Shown piece after piece: positions 39,454 through 61,568 of a stretch of 64,000 nucleotides of DNA. The notes below the pieces were generated by a model. It was not told the origin of the DNA and made no database searches. It saw only the letters and a list, made by a program, of their open reading frames with translations. The stretch comes from a virus. The position numbers and the translations under genes were made by a program. Position 1 is the stretch's first letter; every line of letters begins with the position of its first letter. The DNA lies in IMG/VR virus record IMGVR_UViG_3300031949_000012, positions 31,290-95,289 of that record. One strand, 5' to 3'.

Positions 39454-39549
39454 AAAAAGAGTAGGGGCTCCCTACAACTAGGGAGCCCCAAAAGGAGGAG
39501 AGAAAATAAGGAGGTGAACAACAGAAGCATTAGGAGGATTCGTTTGTCA
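39454..39549 (-). ncRNA. Candidate anti-RBS sRNA 2 (~95 nt)
   Basis: Promoter 39556-39584, three CCUCC tracts, hairpin 39464-39489 then U-rich tail. Confidence 0.62.
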
Positions 39550-39555
39550 ACCTCT

Positions 39556-39584
39556 ATTATACCCTATTCCTCAAATTTCGGCAA
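39556..39584 (-). promoter_or_regulatory. Sigma70 promoter
   Basis: TTGCCG-17-TATAAT overlapping the SbcC stop codon. Confidence 0.72.
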
Positions 39585-42552: not shown

Positions 42553-43398
42553 CTAATAAGGATAAGGAAATTCTCTTACTCTCATAATTTCCGGCCAACC
42601 GGCCGGGTCTTCTCCTTTGCGGTCTATTGGGGCAAAGAAATGCTTTTCGCCGTTGATGTTTTCTCCGGCATATGGGTTAGCCCCAATTTGCTTCATGAAC
42701 ACCGGTGTACTGGCCCTCTGGCATTGCTTGATAATGCTAATGGCCCAACGTAAGTCGAAGGGCCTGGCCTTGGGGCCACTTTCACCGCCAACGATGACCC
42801 AGTTGACATCCGGCACGTAGGCTTTTAACCTTCCCAATTCATCAATAGGCGGGGTTATCCATCGGGACAAGTCCAGACCTTCCATTAGTGGTTCGCAGCT
42901 CAGGAATTTAATCATGGCCGGTATCTGGCAAAGCTCAAGCATCCGTTCATCAAGATACCTCTGGTTCTCAGCCGATGCGCCTACCCAGATGTGCTCCGGC
43001 CAGCTTTTGAGCCAATGCGCCGGAACCATCCGTAAAACATTTTCTGGCCGCTTAGTCAACATCTGCACATCCAAATTCTTGAGGCTTTCTAAAATCTGAC
43101 AAGCCTCTGACCGCCAGGGCTCAAGCTGAGGATGGTCTTCAAAAAAGTCGCTCATACTCTGGCAAAAGACGAGCTGCCGGATACCGGATTTACCAGCCTT
43201 TCTATCCCACAGAAGGATGTCTGTCCAGGAGGACTTGATGCGCCATCGTTCCGTAGTTTGGGCTGGCCCCCAGATGTCTCTACCGATACGTTTGCTCAAG
43301 GTTTCGGCGTAACAGTGTTGGCAGCCCGGCGATACCTTCATACATCCCCACCAAAAGTTCAGCGTGTGGTGGGTCCAGCCGATTTTAGTGTTCTCCAT
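42553..43398 (-). CDS. Phage Gp37/Gp68 (DUF5131) family protein
   Basis: GCMKVSPGCQHCYAE, SMSDFF, LTKRPEN, SCEPL, WVIVGGESG, FMKQIG. Confidence 0.9.
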   Translation of the reverse strand: MENTKIGWTHHTLNFWWGCMKVSPGCQHCYAETLSKRIGRDIWGPAQTTERWRIKSSWTDILLWDRKAGKSGIRQLVFCQSMSDFFEDHPQLEPWRSEACQILESLKNLDVQMLTKRPENVLRMVPAHWLKSWPEHIWVGASAENQRYLDERMLELCQIPAMIKFLSCEPLMEGLDLSRWITPPIDELGRLKAYVPDVNWVIVGGESGPKARPFDLRWAISIIKQCQRASTPVFMKQIGANPYAGENINGEKHFFAPIDRKGEDPAGWPEIMRVREFPYPY

Positions 43399-43876: not shown

Positions 43877-43954
43877 AAACAAAAGTGGGGCATCTGGCTG
43901 GGATGCCCCGTAAAGGAGAATAGGAGAAAGAGTCATTTGGCTAGAATGTCTCAT
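43877..43954 (-). ncRNA. Candidate anti-RBS sRNA 3 (~75 nt) complementary to structural-gene RBSs
   Basis: Promoter 43960-43988; body AUGAGACAUUCUAGCCAAAUGACUCUUUCUCCUAUUCUCCUUUA; terminator hairpin 43887-43909. Confidence 0.7.
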
Positions 43955-43959
43955 AAACT

Positions 43960-43988
43960 ATTATAAGCCGAAAATTGATTTTCGTCAA
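43960..43988 (-). promoter_or_regulatory. Sigma70 promoter with palindromic operator in spacer
   Basis: TTGACG-17-TATAAT; CGAAAATTGATTTTCG at 43969-43984. Confidence 0.82.
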
Positions 43989-43989
43989 G

Positions 43990-44562
43990 TCATAAGGCTA
44001 TGATTTCCTCCGGGCCAAAGGAGTATTCTGCCTTGCGCCCGTCATTCATATAGTGCTCGATGGAGAGCAACGCGGTGTGAACGGCCATCCGAATGAGAGG
44101 CAAGCCCAAGGTATAGGTGTAGAAGTAATATCCTTCCCAATCCGTATCTTGTATTTGCCAGTTCTCATCCCAGATAACGGTTCCAGTCTGTGTTTCATTG
44201 ACGCTAATGTGCAGGGTAGGGACGCCCAAGTTGTGCAAGAGGTTCCTTGCCCTGGGATTATCCAGAGCGTCTATGATAAGCACCGGCTTTTCCCTGGCTA
44301 GTATCTTGAGAACTAAGTCTTGGGTTAAAGTCTCTTTCCAAGGTTCGGCCTGGGCCTGGCCACGCACATGGATCATGTGCCCCAGCCCAAATGCTTTATT
44401 GCAAGAGATAAGGTCATCCGGGTAGATGGATGCCGCCAGTTTCTCTGGCTCAATCCGGCCGTCATCGAATAGAGTAAAGTATTTGAAGGTCATACACAAT
44501 TCATACCCGATGCGGCTGCCGATTGCGCCACAACCGCAAATCCAAATCCTATTTTGTTTCAT
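43990..44562 (-). CDS. ThiF/E1-like adenylation-family protein
   Basis: ICGCGAIGS, LFDDGRIE, NKA, IIDALDNPRAR. Confidence 0.75.
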   Translation of the reverse strand: MKQNRIWICGCGAIGSRIGYELCMTFKYFTLFDDGRIEPEKLAASIYPDDLISCNKAFGLGHMIHVRGQAQAEPWKETLTQDLVLKILAREKPVLIIDALDNPRARNLLHNLGVPTLHISVNETQTGTVIWDENWQIQDTDWEGYYFYTYTLGLPLIRMAVHTALLSIEHYMNDGRKAEYSFGPEEIIAL

Positions 44563-51000: not shown

Positions 51001-51879
51001 GGCGGCCCCGGTTCATTTGGGATTTCCGGCGCTCATTCGCCATCTTGTTCATACTCCTCTTGTCTGGCTTCTTCTTTCAGTATCATCTCCCAGACCTGGG
51101 CCGCTTCAGCATGATAGTTTGCATCTTCCAGGGCCCAATGGAAAATTCTTAGCAGGGGCAGGCCATCCCAGTCGCAAAAGCGGGCCAGGGCAATACCCAG
51201 GCCGTTCTCCTGGCGTTCCTGAACGTTGTCAGGCCGGATATGGTCCGGCGGCAAAGACTCCTCTGCTTCGTAAATGGCGATCCTACTCAGCAGTTCGCTA
51301 GAGTTTAATTTGGTAGACATTGTTTTCCTCCTTGAATTGTAGTTCTAAAGTGTAGCCGGGGGGATATTCCCCATTGCTGACTAAAACTATCTTTCCGGCC
51401 GAAAGAGTGATAGTGATTTCCTGAGCACGTGATACCTCTACGCTTTCTACTTCTCCATCTAAAATGGTTTGAATTTTAGCCTGCAACAAGTCGGCCTCGT
51501 TATCTGCATCTTCATCTCCCCAACCTTCAATCTCCTCAGCTTGATAAAGGCCAGCCGGCGAAATGCTGTCTTCAGCATCGGGCGTTCTGGCTTCAATGAT
51601 CTCGAACGGAACGGATCGGACCGTGAGCTTGTAGCTATGAGGAAATTCAAGGCGATACACTCCCTTGATGATAAGGTGGGGGTAAATCATCAAGCGGTTA
51701 GGTTTGCCATAAATCCAGGTGTCGTTCCAGTAATAGCCCTTCCTGTAACAAAAGTCTACAATGTAATTCTTGTCGTCATCTGGAAAAACGACTGGCAGGC
51801 GTTTCGCACTTTCTATGACAATCTTGTTTTCAGGCGGGTCCAGGGGACCCTGGTAAGTCAGCTTGATTTTGCGTTTCAC
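48021..51879 (-). CDS. Run of small hypothetical ORFs (48021-48275, 48262-48867, 48854-49198, 49198-49575, 49572-49760, 49757-50140, 50169-50429, 50442-50792, 50789-51052, 51033-51320, 51298-51879)
   Basis: Overlapping or coupled ORFs, most with clear GGAG(G) RBS; no recognisable family. Confidence 0.6.
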
Positions 51880-52930
51880 CGTTTTCCTCCTTAAAACCAA
51901 ATTTGAATATAAGCGGCTTGAGTGGTCTGTTATCCCACATGGCGAATAAGTAAGCCGCTAAGGATGGGTGATACTCATTCGCCCATAGCGCAAATTCCTT
52001 GCGCGATGCTTTTGGGGCCTGGTAGAATACAAGTCCAATCAGATATTCTGCCCTGGCTATAACTTCTAAAATTTGTTTTTCCCATCCCCGAACTTCAGCC
52101 AGGTACTCGTCTGGGATAATGCTCATGGCCTCAGCCAGTGTTCCGGCTTCTACGTGCGCCAGGATACTTTTGAAGCTCAAGCCGCTGATGAGTTTGTGTA
52201 ACTTTCGATATTCGTCACCTTTGAACTTGAATCGTTCACCGTCGGCGAACTCGGCTACCCAACCCTCTGCAGTAGGCGGCAAAACTTTGGCCGCTTCAAC
52301 GATTTTGTCCGGCGTCTCGAAACGAAACGCAAAAGGGACAGAGAACTTGTAGATTTCCGCTATATGCCTCAACTCTTCAGGCGAAAGGAAGCCGCCAGTA
52401 AATCTCGACCGGGCAGCTAACAAAACCAGGTCCTCTTTTTGGTAGTCGATTACGATGCGATTGGCCGGATAAACAATCTCGAACAGTAAGGTTAGAGCTG
52501 GGGGTAAATCATCAAGATTATAGTTCCTGTTCAGGAACTCGGTTGCCCAAACCGCCTGATCGCTATCGAAACTACCACGGGTGGCGACTCGAAAACCGCC
52601 ATTTTCACGGTAAAGGATGCCCAGGGAACCATCTATCTTCTCGGTGACTTTCTTGATAGGTGCATCTGAATACCGGCCTCCTTCGCCCCAGTTGAAGAAC
52701 TTATCAAATGGCCGGGCTACCACTTCGCCCGTCTCGGCGTTCAAAATCAAGCCCCGGCTAATGCGCTCGATGAAATTCCAGCGCCCTTCAAACTGGGCTT
52801 TCGCCGTATAGTTAAAGAGCCGCAGCGGGCCACGTTCAGCAACGTAAATTTCGCCCAGGCTTTTCCAGTCCGAGAAGCCGGTTTGGGCCAGGTTTTGAAG
52901 GTCGGTTATGGTTTCAACCGAAGTCCTCAC
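51830..52930 (-). CDS. RNA ligase (T4 Rnl1-like)
   Basis: RGLI, PFDKFFN, EKIDGS (motif I), LLFEI, EGWV, KFK. Confidence 0.88.
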   Translation of the reverse strand: MRTSVETITDLQNLAQTGFSDWKSLGEIYVAERGPLRLFNYTAKAQFEGRWNFIERISRGLILNAETGEVVARPFDKFFNWGEGGRYSDAPIKKVTEKIDGSLGILYRENGGFRVATRGSFDSDQAVWATEFLNRNYNLDDLPPALTLLFEIVYPANRIVIDYQKEDLVLLAARSRFTGGFLSPEELRHIAEIYKFSVPFAFRFETPDKIVEAAKVLPPTAEGWVAEFADGERFKFKGDEYRKLHKLISGLSFKSILAHVEAGTLAEAMSIIPDEYLAEVRGWEKQILEVIARAEYLIGLVFYQAPKASRKEFALWANEYHPSLAAYLFAMWDNRPLKPLIFKFGFKEENGETQNQADLPGSPGPA

Positions 52931-59002: not shown

Positions 59003-59148
59003 CCGGCGTCGGGCGAAGATTTCAGGAGAGGCTTTCGCTCAGTCGTCGTCTCTTTCAACCGCTGCCCGACGCCGGACACTTGTCGCCGAGCTTTGTAGGA
59101 GAGACTTTCGCTCAGTCGTCGTCTCTTTCAACCGCTGCGACAGGTGTC
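59003..59148. repeat. Two tandem hairpin units sharing a 42-nt core
   Basis: Direct repeats 59024-59065 and 59097-59138 (1 difference), each closed by a different 12-bp stem. Confidence 0.85.
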
Positions 59149-59429
59149 GTGTTTCTTTTAACTTTCACCTTTTAATCACCTTTGACTTTACTTGTGTCTC
59201 TACTACAAACCCTATCCCCCCACCCGCCCCGCCCCCAACGAATTTGCGCCTTTAGAACACGGCACTGGCACCACTATCACTCTGGGGCACGGCGGATTGC
59301 ATTTTTTGTTGAGCCGGACTTGAACAGTAATCCCACTAGTACAATCTATGTCCGGCCGGAGCCTCTGACCCCGATTATGAAGTTTGAGTTTACCGAAAAC
59401 GTCACTCTAAAAACAAAAACCGCCCCGGC

Positions 59430-59618
59430 CTATTGGCTTTGTAGCGGTTCATCTTTATCGAATTTTCTTGGAATATTCAAGCTCTCGGCTTTTTCCCGGA
59501 GCAGCATTTCCATAACCGAAGTCTGGCTGAGGCCAAGCCTCCGGGCTATCTGGCGCAAAAGATAACGCGCCTCTTGTGTAAATCGGTATGACATTGGAAC
59601 TCTAGCCATAGTATTCAT
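59430..59618 (-). CDS. Ribbon-helix-helix (CopG/Arc-like) regulator
   Basis: MSYRFTQEARYLLRQIARRLGLSQTSVMEMLLRE pattern. Confidence 0.75.
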   Translation of the reverse strand: MNTMARVPMSYRFTQEARYLLRQIARRLGLSQTSVMEMLLREKAESLNIPRKFDKDEPLQSQ

Positions 59619-59625
59619 AACCTGT

Positions 59626-59654
59626 ATTGTATCACGAATTACTTACTTTGTCAA
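59626..59654 (-). promoter_or_regulatory. Sigma70 promoter for probable leaderless RHH mRNA
   Basis: TTGACA-17-TACAAT; ATG follows -10 after 7 nt. Confidence 0.8.
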
Positions 59655-59739: not shown

Positions 59740-60207
59740 TTATTTTTTATAACCTTTGGATATGCTTCTAATACCCCTTTTATGGCAAGGCCCACAAAGT
59801 TCATTATGGGTCAAGCCTCGCCAATAAAAGGCGCATATTTTACATTTATGTAAAATTGTTCTTCTGCTGGCTTTTGGTGCCTTATTTTCCGGTTGCTCTA
59901 AATTGTTTTTCTCTGCTTCCGCTCTCCTGGCCGCTTTGACTGCCTTTACAACTTTATTGGCTAAAACAAAGAAAATTCCGCCTGGAAAGCGTGGCCGGCT
60001 TCCATCCGGTAGCATCATAACCCCGCCCGAATTGACGAACTTTAACGTTTCGAGATAAACCAGGCGGGTTTGCTTTGCGCCGATAGAACGCAAAATTTTT
60101 CGTAGACGACCGCAATCCCCCTCGAACCTTTCTGGGTCCTTGAAAAAGGCGGCCACAATTTTATTATAAACCTCAAGTTGTTCTGGGTTCAAATCCGAGA
60201 TTGGCAT
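59740..60207 (-). CDS. PHAX-type RNA-binding domain protein
   Basis: IG...ET...GG...DGSRPRFPGGIFFVL closely resembles the PHAX RNA-binding motif (DGSRRRTPGGVF); C-terminal CxxC...CxxC. Confidence 0.72.
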   Translation of the reverse strand: MPISDLNPEQLEVYNKIVAAFFKDPERFEGDCGRLRKILRSIGAKQTRLVYLETLKFVNSGGVMMLPDGSRPRFPGGIFFVLANKVVKAVKAARRAEAEKNNLEQPENKAPKASRRTILHKCKICAFYWRGLTHNELCGPCHKRGIRSISKGYKK

Positions 60208-60229
60208 TATCAAAACCCTTTACGGAAAC

Positions 60230-60458
60230 AAAAAAGGCGCCAAGCTATCACGCCCGCGCCGCAAAATGAAAAGTCCGTCGCTCTAATCTGCAACCCCCAA
60301 AGCGAGTACAGGAATTTTGGGGTTAGCGGCCCCTCCGAAAAGGAGTTGCATATTAGAAGAACGGACTTATTTAAGATAACAAAAAAGTTTTTCATGTACC
60401 TGTACTCGCTTTTCTTTCCCCTCCGTTTGCCAGGCGGATGATTGGCTATTTAATCCTG
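60230..60458 (-). ncRNA. Structured leader/ncRNA upstream of PHAX-like gene
   Basis: Crossing stems 60271-60297/60342-60368 and 60299-60312/60399-60412; terminal hairpin plus U6. Confidence 0.58.
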
Positions 60459-60464
60459 TTTAGA

Positions 60465-60493
60465 ATGATAACCGATTTTAGCATTTTTGTCAA
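60465..60493 (-). promoter_or_regulatory. Sigma70 promoter
   Basis: TTGACA-17-TATCAT. Confidence 0.78.
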
Positions 60494-61378
60494 ATCTCGC
60501 TCTCGCTATTTAATATAGCTTTTTTCTTTGGTACGCAGCCAAGAGGCTTGCCCTCAGCGATACGCCAATGTCTGTTGCAGACCCAGATCGTTTGTCCCTG
60601 CCAGATAACTTCCTTGATACCAATGCGGGGGCAGTGTTTAGGCCATTGGCAATAATGAAAACCGCCTGGCCGATTAAACTCGTTGTCCATCGTTAAAATT
60701 CATCATAATCCTGTTCGTTGACCCATTTCCAAACATCCGGGCCATAGATTGCTTCCATAGCCGCCTCGTAGATATAGTGTTCCAGGTTTTCATCTACTTC
60801 GCCCGTCTTGACTTCCTCAATCCAAGAAGCGGTCAGCTTACGCAAGGCCGTAAAATCTTGCTGGTCAATCGCCAGCGGCGTTGGTTCATTCATCGGTTTC
60901 TCCTGTTTCTTTGAAAAAGACGCCCATTTGAAAGTCTCTGGCCAATTCCTTGATCTTTTGCCTGGCCCAGCTCATACACCATGCTTTCCCGGCTTCAAGG
61001 TGGGTTTGCTCGCCCTTGCCCTGGACGGTGAAACTGGCCGAGCTGTCACCAAACCAGACGACGCACAGCGCGTCATCATCATCGGGAAAGATAAAGAATT
61101 TGAACGGGTTCCGGTAGAACCGGGCCTCCTTACCCTTGTCGTACTCACTCCATTCCATCTTGAACCTCCTGCCTGTTTATCATCGTTATCACCGCCTTCA
61201 ATGCAGCCTCAAACTCATCTAAGATGTCCATGTATTGCTGGCTGCACAGATCGCCCCGTAAGTCGCACATGCAGCCGGTATCGGAACAGCGCTCGTCTAT
61301 TAAATCAACGAGCTTTTTCAGAGCCCGGCGGACTTTTTGCATGGTGTCCTCAGATGATGGTAGATAATCTATAGTCAT
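60490..61378 (-). CDS. Four small hypothetical ORFs (60490-60690, 60693-60893, 60886-61158, 61145-61378)
   Basis: Coupled ORFs, most with RBSs. Confidence 0.55.
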
Positions 61379-61397: not shown

Positions 61398-61533
61398 AAA
61401 AATCCCCACTTCGGGGGGATAGTGTCTCTGTCGTCTTACCATGCCGACCGACCGCAGGTAAGAACCCACTATCCCTGAAAGAGGGGATTACTCGGTCTGT
61501 TACAAGCCCTGGAGAGACAGGGCTAAATTCCTA
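61398..61533 (-). ncRNA. Structured leader/ncRNA (~135 nt)
   Basis: Long interrupted stem 61401-61489 ending in U5; 5' hairpin 61505-61524. Confidence 0.5.
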
Positions 61534-61539
61534 CTTCCC

Positions 61540-61568
61540 ATGATAAGCCAAAAATCAACTTTTGTCAA
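61540..61568 (-). promoter_or_regulatory. Sigma70 promoter
   Basis: TTGACA-17-TATCAT. Confidence 0.78.

Follow-up and report, generated by a model that had tools for sequence, protein, structure and literature searches.

A divergent PHAX RNA-binding-domain protein encoded behind a structured leader RNA in an uncultured soil phage

The stretch of DNA analysed here (the window, 64,000 nucleotides) covers bases 31290–95289 of a 95,289-bp IMG/VR record, which has direct terminal repeats and is rated complete. The record represents an uncultured soil phage of about 95 kb. In a search of sequencing runs, the stretch was found only in the probable source soil metagenome, as a single identical contig without variants, and no RNA run was listed with it. 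The plus strand carries long ORFs over about 0–34.7 kb of the window, including one of 2765 aa. The minus strand between 34.7 and 63.4 kb encodes SMC/SbcC-like, SbcD-like and ThiF-like proteins, a 5'-3' exonuclease, a DUF5131 protein and an Rnl1-type RNA ligase, and the 10 kb at the right end is filled with small genes that have no Pfam or PHROG match. Three near-consensus sigma-70 promoters locate in this right-end block on the minus strand (61568–61540, 60493–60465 and 59654–59626). The gene of interest lies here, 3.8 kb from the right genome end, and its position and the type of its promoter suggest that it is an early gene. No tRNA gene was found in the window. When 50,697 GenBank phages were searched by tblastn, neither the putative capsid protein nor the protein described below was matched; for the latter, PHROGs also gave nothing significant and NCBIfam held no model.

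The minus-strand frame 59740–60213 is open, and its translation contains SIGAKQTRLVYLETLKFVNSGGVMMLPDGSRPRFPGGIFFVL exactly as quoted in the initial annotation. The TTG listed as its start (60213) is probably not the start codon. The ATG at 60207 is preferred because it is preceded by AAAGGG, is conserved in a close metagenomic relative (L002, see below) and is the start of the 155-aa database copy. The Shine-Dalgarno-like AAAGGG (60216–60221, minus strand) is located 8 nt before this ATG, and L002 has AAGGAGG at the same position in the alignment. The coding sequence would then run over 59740–60207 on the minus strand, with the stop codon at 59740–59742, and encode a protein of 155 aa. With a pI of 10.06 and 31 lysines and arginines versus 14 aspartates and glutamates, the protein is strongly basic.

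The protein had been described as PHAX-like from its sequence, and the profile search agrees. PF10258 (PHAX_RNA-bd), whose curated gathering cut-off is 25 bits, matched residues 35–85 (59953–60105, minus strand) on profile positions 17–66 with 37.8 bits (E 1.9e-9), and reached 38.6 bits in a six-frame search of the genome. Only human PHAX (2xc7, 8pnt) and Cryptosporidium parvum 2w4s were found when the PDB sequences were searched with phmmer (E 6e-4 to 2e-3). Structure prediction, which the initial annotation had proposed as a check, gave an AF2 model with pLDDT >90 over residues 1–103 (59899–60207, minus strand). This part forms a PHAX-type helical domain with four helices (residues 8–21, 29–42, 44–59 and 75–103), which matches the solved PHAX-type domains 2w4s and 2xc7. 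Foldseek against the PDB returned 2w4s_A (TMt 0.72, probability 1.0) and 2xc7 (probability 1.0), with the rest at noise. Consistently, 2w4s_A was the top match of an exhaustive VIA-align comparison with 48,161 representative chains (Z 9.6, rmsd 2.5 Å over 78 residues), and the next rows were generic helical bundles with Z of 6.8 or less. The alignment used for AF2 consisted of 42 relatives that are themselves members of PF10258, which makes the structural match partly dependent on the sequence match. The PHAX fold accounts fully for the confident part of the model.

The family has a signature loop, tested as GG-x5-DGSRRRTPGG-[VI]-[FY]-F. In the phage protein the residues G61, G62, D68, G69, S70, R71, R73, P75, G76, G77 and F80 are kept, so that the invariant Gly-Gly turn, Arg71 and Arg73 of the basic loop and the PGG-(I/V)-F-F segment are all present. 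It departs from the signature in having P for R72, F for T74 and one inserted residue after GG. The GG...DGSRPRFPGGIFF loop lies within the helical domain, and in the model it is carried on a short hairpin-like turn. These results indicate that the phage protein is a true but divergent member of the PHAX RNA-binding-domain family. Its domain is very probably a PHAX-type fold that binds nucleic acid. The changed RRR motif and the very long branch of the phage sequence in the domain tree mean that the ligand or the function may have shifted.

To our knowledge, work on the PHAX RNA-binding domain has been confined to the eukaryotic snRNA/snoRNA export adaptor, and a literature search found no paper linking PHAX to phages, Chloroflexi or bacteria. 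The eukaryotic domain (human 2xc7 and C. parvum 2w4s) has the same helical fold as the phage protein and shares the loop GG...DGSR.R.PGG-hydrophobic-F, with about 25% identity over about 80 residues. In contrast to the eukaryotic domain, the phage protein has Pro for the middle Arg of RRR, Phe for Thr and the inserted residue. Human PHAX is eukaryotic, whereas the phage protein belongs to a prokaryotic-virus setting. Human PHAX is also much more than this domain: it is a mostly disordered export adaptor of 394 residues, with an ARM, an NES, CBC-binding and phosphorylation regions and an N-terminal ARS2-recognition motif (PMC12350170). The ARS2-recognition motif, the ARM, the NES, the CBC-binding helix and the phosphorylation clusters are all missing from the 155-aa phage protein. 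Its PHAX domain begins at residue 1–7, and it matches full-length human PHAX (8pnt_C) only over residues 246–327 of the latter. Because the other parts of eukaryotic PHAX are missing, the phage protein belongs to the domain family without being a PHAX orthologue.

The domain is followed by a basic, lineage-specific tail (residues 104–155; 59743–59898, minus strand). It was modelled at pLDDT of about 50–57 without secondary structure. Cysteines at residues 122, 125, 138 and 141 form a CxxC-x12-CxxC motif (residues 122–141; 59785–59844, minus strand), and the spacing makes a zinc site plausible. The initial annotation had proposed a four-Cys zinc site. The motif is present as claimed, but it is not conserved: a search with the Cys4 tail alone found no homologue, and the tail is missing from close relatives of 101–105 aa that are 82% identical. 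A weak structural match (TM 0.51) to a 69-aa Chloroflexota cluster was returned from the ESM Atlas. The nucleotide homology to L002 ends at about codon 100, which places the Cys4 tail beyond a recombination breakpoint. The tail may be a recent add-on that provides a second contact.

The close relatives are eleven metagenomic proteins of 101–105 aa (ten of them P0046–P0055), which are about 82% identical to the phage protein and end right after the PHAX domain. One of them is encoded on L002, a contig of 1266 bp. The homology between the window and L002 starts in the leader that precedes the gene, runs through codon 100 and then drops to about 33%, the random level. Nucleotide identity is 86% in the coding part and 77–83% in the 3' two-thirds of the leader. 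Neither the upstream nor the downstream gene of one is related to that of the other, and the downstream gene of L002 has no counterpart in this phage and no Pfam match. The leader and codons 1–100 were therefore inherited as one block, and the leader and the domain are probably functionally coupled. When IMG/VR was scanned with patterns derived from this protein and from its close relatives, no relative was found, and a scan with the leader pattern also gave none.

A structured RNA leader directly upstream had been part of the original proposal, and it is supported by the features found there and by compensatory changes versus L002. The leader is about 230 nt long, with about 250 nt from promoter to start codon, and contains in order a promoter, a long hairpin, a loop-to-5' pairing and a terminator. 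The sigma-70-type promoter TTGACA-17-TATCAT (60465–60493, minus strand; 11/12 matches) starts the leader and overlaps the stop of the upstream ORF 60490–60690. L002 has TTGGCA-17-TATAAT at the same place. The long interrupted hairpin (inverted repeat I2; 60271–60368, minus strand) has its arms at 60271–60297 and 60342–60368. In this hairpin RNAalifold found 2 compensatory double changes, 2 wobble-preserving changes and 0 broken pairs, a covariation that rests on the two sequences of the window phage and L002. The loop-to-5' pairing (inverted repeat I5; 60299–60412, minus strand) joins 60399–60412 to the perfectly complementary 60299–60312 (14 nt). As the latter segment is inside the apical loop of the hairpin, the pairing would form a pseudoknot or an alternative helix. 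L002 keeps this helix as a perfect one of 12 bp, with both arms shorter by 2 nt in a coordinated way, and only 5 of 2000 shuffles of the leader contained a perfect inverted repeat of at least 12 nt.

The leader closes with an intrinsic-terminator-like element (60226–60260, minus strand), in which a GC-rich hairpin (GGCGCGGGCG...GGCGCC, 60236–60260) is followed by U6. It was identified by the terminator scan and the consensus fold, and its pairs are kept in both the window and L002. The terminator ends about 20–30 nt before the start codon and a few nt before the ribosome-binding site. The G-U pairs of the leader are possible only in the minus-strand transcript, and the leader is a single copy in the phage genome. 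No Rfam family reached its gathering threshold anywhere in the window, and the leader gave only chance-level matches. A 61-aa ORF within the leader (60210–60395) was rejected as a gene, since in L002 its frame is interrupted by indels of 5, 1 and 2 nt; with the nucleotides conserved while the frame is broken, the element is non-coding. The region from the terminator to the gene shows no promoter, so transcription of the gene should need read-through. The leader could also be a separate sRNA gene.

This architecture raises the possibility that the protein is a regulator of termination in cis or in trans, which would bind its own pseudoknotted leader for autoregulation or for antitermination of early units. 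The inheritance of leader and PHAX domain as one block between differing flanks fits such a role, as does the terminator placed between the sole visible promoter and the ribosome-binding site. In addition, a second promoter-leader-terminator unit (61568–61398, minus strand) was identified by the promoter scan 1 kb upstream, before the gene 61145–61378. Its promoter hexamers are identical to those of the PHAX leader, and its leader (61398–61568) could be another target of the protein. However, the basis of this explanation is purely architectural, no motif common to the two leaders is evident, and the leader could answer to a metabolite or another factor. We consider it unlikely as the function of the protein.

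Other short promoter-to-terminator units are present on the same strand (43988–43887 and 39584–39464), together with a perfect consensus promoter (4337–4309, minus strand). These units may be sRNAs or leaders. The initial annotation had suggested a possible sRNA chaperone. If the units are sRNAs, the protein might act as a matchmaker like Hfq or ProQ, helping the phage's own sRNAs (the promoter-to-terminator units with their CUCC tracts) to pair with ribosome-binding sites. Its RNA-binding-type domain would suit this task, and like the Hfq and ProQ/FinO chaperones it is a small, basic, proposed RNA binder. In contrast to this likeness, it has no sequence or fold relation to them: Pfam showed neither an Sm nor a FinO or ProQ signature with E allowed up to 10, and no Sm or FinO fold was among the fold matches listed by Foldseek and VIA-align. 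The characterised PHAX domain is a monomeric binder of ssRNA and not an annealer, which also argues against a matchmaking role, and the short units are possibly leaders and not sRNAs. A chaperone of this kind is therefore very unlikely.

To place the domain, relatives were collected from bacteria. HMMER over 1.84 billion cluster representatives gave 41 matches at E <= 1e-3, all of which carry PF10258 and all of which are distant apart from the close-relative cluster P0002. A scan of GTDB with one genome per species found 122 relatives, of which 80 (L003–L082) were covered by the analyses below. All of these 80 loci carry PF10258, and they are overwhelmingly from Chloroflexota and Myxococcota. 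The Chloroflexota carriers include Anaerolineae, Chloroflexaceae, Oscillochloris, Kouleothrix, Ktedonobacteria, Caldilineaceae and Aggregatilineales, and the Myxococcota carriers are Sorangium and other Polyangiaceae. PF10258 was present in 8 of 201 genomes sampled evenly across the phylum of Thermosporothrix hazakensis (Chloroflexota), compared with 0 of 14 control genomes. This distribution of the domain suggests that the host of the phage may belong to Chloroflexota.

The bacterial ORFs are mostly 230–450 aa. PHAX lies close to the N-terminus and is followed by a low-complexity linker and then by a conserved C-terminal domain for which Pfam has no model. The model of one such protein (pLDDT 91) shows that the C-terminal domain is an OB fold, and its Foldseek matches were SSB, PriB, trypanosome editosome OB proteins and the anticodon-binding domain of LysRS (E about 1e-4, probability 1.0). 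Fusions were also observed among the 80 relatives, with an N-terminal RRM_1 in 7 and a CSD in 5, and the ESM Atlas contains a 60-member PHAX+RRM cluster from Chloroflexota. The neighbourhoods of the 80 genes showed no recurrent partner (UbiA 4, BPL_LplA_LipB 4 and Tex 3 of 111 ORFs).

The bacterial PHAX-OB proteins and the phage domain are 25–33% identical when aligned (up to 48% in the best tblastn segment) and have the invariant residues E26, G62, R71, R73, G76, G77 and F80 in common. The OB domain, tested by its motifs VKxTLIGRPG, LPKGxP, KQW and PEDxLIxEG, is missing from the phage protein, whose chain ends 52 residues after the PHAX domain. The bacterial proteins have OB and sometimes RRM or CSD parts, whereas the phage protein has none of these and carries the unrelated Cys4 tail instead. 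The bacterial genes also differ in having neither conserved neighbours nor a leader like that of the phage. The bacterial PHAX-OB family is the most probable source of the phage gene.

Viral relatives are very few. Scans of 2.9 million IMG/VR contigs with the family motifs found only two further carriers. One (L086) is on a 141.6-kb contig (UViG_3300026067_000001) and encodes 175 aa, with PHAX and a Cys/His tail ending in CRFCSWWH. The other (L087) is on an 8.6-kb contig (UViG_3300015241_000309) and encodes 148 aa, with PHAX and a Lys-rich basic tail. Both resemble the protein of this phage in being a short PHAX domain plus a variable tail without OB domain, and the three viral tails are mutually unrelated. 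Unlike the phage protein, both carry the canonical RRRTPGG. Their genes also have no comparable structured leader, whereas the gene of this phage has one, which counts against the chaperone and against the termination regulator discussed above.

In the domain tree, which was a quick tree search, L087 nests in a Ktedonobacteria clade (aLRT 98). Its place within Ktedonobacteria sequences points to an independent capture. The phage sequence and L002 group together on a very long branch, which is weakly attached (aLRT 81) to an RRM-PHAX protein of Anaerolineae. As judged from these sequences, it appears that phages captured the bare PHAX domain repeatedly and that it diverged rapidly in this lineage.

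The bare domain of the phage versions could also be a decoy, that is, a truncated copy of the host PHAX-OB protein which would compete with the latter for RNA or for partners and so shut down a host RNA pathway at an early stage of infection. Phage versions do consist of PHAX without the OB domain found in most of the bacterial relatives examined, and the gene has an early location. On the other hand, the phage clade lies very far from all bacterial sequences, and PF10258 was present in only 8 of the 201 sampled Chloroflexota genomes. A decoy function is thus highly improbable.

The fusions to RRM, CSD and OB modules are the best indirect evidence on the ligand, and they support a prokaryotic PHAX domain that works on single-stranded nucleic acid. 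The RRM partner points to RNA, while the OB and CSD partners allow ssDNA too. If ssDNA were bound instead of RNA, the protein would be an SSB- or PriB-like accessory of replication or recombination. The OB fold of the bacterial proteins is nearest to SSB and PriB, the L087 gene comes directly after a DnaB helicase gene, and the next gene of L002 resembles by eye a winged-helix replication organiser. However, the only characterised members of the domain family bind RNA according to their PDB titles, and RRM fusions are typical of RNA binders. The phage gene stands among small orphan early genes, away from the nuclease, SbcCD and ligase genes, and the bacterial neighbourhoods have no replication linkage. 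Such an accessory is decidedly unlikely, and on balance the ligand is probably RNA rather than ssDNA.

The explanation that we favour, and think probable, is therefore that the phage encodes, as an early gene, a small basic protein whose ligand is single-stranded nucleic acid and most likely RNA. Candidate targets are its own leader, other phage transcripts and host RNAs. One point on the other side is that OB (SSB/PriB-like) and cold-shock partners bind ssDNA too. The human PHAX domain reportedly binds ssRNA with little sequence preference, and by analogy the phage domain would grip ssRNA in the same manner. The phage would have taken the PHAX module from the bacterial family, mainly of Chloroflexota and Myxococcota, and kept this module only and not the OB, RRM or CSD parts. 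Recombination at about codon 100 may then have joined it to the basic CxxC-x12-CxxC tail, which possibly binds zinc and would add a second contact to nucleic acid or protein. The promoter at 60465–60493 would be the only one to transcribe the gene, through the leader of about 230 nt that ends in the terminator, and synthesis of the protein could be gated by read-through of this terminator.

As a genuine member of a domain family that is already known, the phage protein is not categorically new. What is new is the viral setting, the minimal domain with a variable tail, the bacterial wiring to OB, RRM and CSD parts, and the leader RNA inherited together with the gene. The prokaryotic branch of PHAX is sizeable and taxonomically narrow, with its centre in Chloroflexota and Myxococcota, and in it the domain is linked to OB, RRM and cold-shock modules. 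Should the phage protein prove to bind RNA, a new fold would join the few RNA-binding regulators encoded by phages, and the protein's domain of about 100 residues would be an expressible handle on the role of the bacterial family.

The co-inherited leader may be a new cis-regulatory RNA, for which the protein would be the natural partner. The PHAX-like protein and its pseudoknotted terminator leader might even be a new protein-RNA pair that sets the read-through of early transcription units, in phages that probably infect Chloroflexota, although we regard this as quite improbable. If true, it would be an (anti)termination system built from a domain known only in eukaryotic snRNA export. Binding by the protein would possibly extend to the leader at 61398–61568 and to other promoter-proximal terminator units.

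The PHAX-type domain has relatives in both bacteria and viruses. In Chloroflexota and Myxococcota, it belongs to an uncharacterised protein family (80 fetched loci, L003-L082; for example L004:4138-4899, L006:4602-5663 and L008:1984-2982), in which a linker connects the domain to a conserved OB fold that is SSB/PriB-like by Foldseek. An N-terminal RRM is present in 7 of the 80 members and a cold-shock domain in 5, and some MAGs carry two copies of the family per genome. No NCBIfam model was found for this family, and no conserved gene neighbours were found across these loci.

Short PHAX-domain proteins are also encoded by two further IMG/VR viral contigs, with tails that are unrelated to each other. 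The protein of UViG_3300026067_000001 (L086:5926-6453) has a Cys/His motif ending in CRFCSWWH, while the tail of that in UViG_3300015241_000309 (L087:7998-8444) is Lys-rich and basic. The latter gene lies directly behind a DnaB helicase gene (L087:6272-7618). In L002, the contig encoding a close relative of the phage protein, the next ORF (L002:770-1264) after the PHAX gene encodes a product that ends in GGNFPPLNPST repeats. This ORF has no match in Pfam, and no counterpart was found in this phage; by eye, its product resembles a winged-helix replication organiser or a protein of the HTH_36 type.

Upstream of the PHAX gene, at window positions 61398-61568 on the minus strand, a promoter and a structured leader are again combined with a terminator-like hairpin (61402-61420, then U5); this second unit lies immediately 5' of a 77-aa gene (61145-61378). 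Its layout is identical to that of the PHAX leader, and the hexamers of its promoter (TTGACA-17-TATCAT) are identical to those at 60465-60493. The initial annotation had also proposed candidate sRNAs at 43887-43988 and 39464-39584 (minus, the early strand). Both are short, ORF-free promoter-to-terminator units; the scanner bore out their promoters and hairpins, and the sRNA role is putative. A perfect consensus promoter (12/12) is located at 4337-4309 (minus).

Several small elements surround the PHAX gene. The ORF just upstream of its leader (60490-60690, minus) encodes a 66-aa orphan rich in Cys and His (C14, C20, C38, C52 and several His), possibly one more small early protein that binds metal. 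On the other side, the interval 59430-59654 (minus, promoter included) codes for a protein of 62 aa that resembles ribbon-helix-helix proteins and has weak matches to RelB/DinJ and HTH_50. Its mRNA may be leaderless, because its promoter, a TG-extended consensus, has its -10 box 8 nt before the ATG at 59618. A terminator (59417-59431) immediately follows the stop codon. The 580-nt gap from this terminator to the next gene contains a 42-nt tandem direct repeat (59024-59065 and 59097-59138; 98% identity, spaced 73 nt), and each copy is enclosed by its own inverted repeat (59003-59029 with 59049-59075).

The phage also encodes SbcCD-like proteins, a 5'-3' exonuclease and, on the minus strand, a ThiF-like protein (43990-44562), a DUF5131 protein (42553-43398) and an Rnl1-type RNA ligase (51830-52930). 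The ligase may indicate that RNA or tRNA is repaired in the course of infection.
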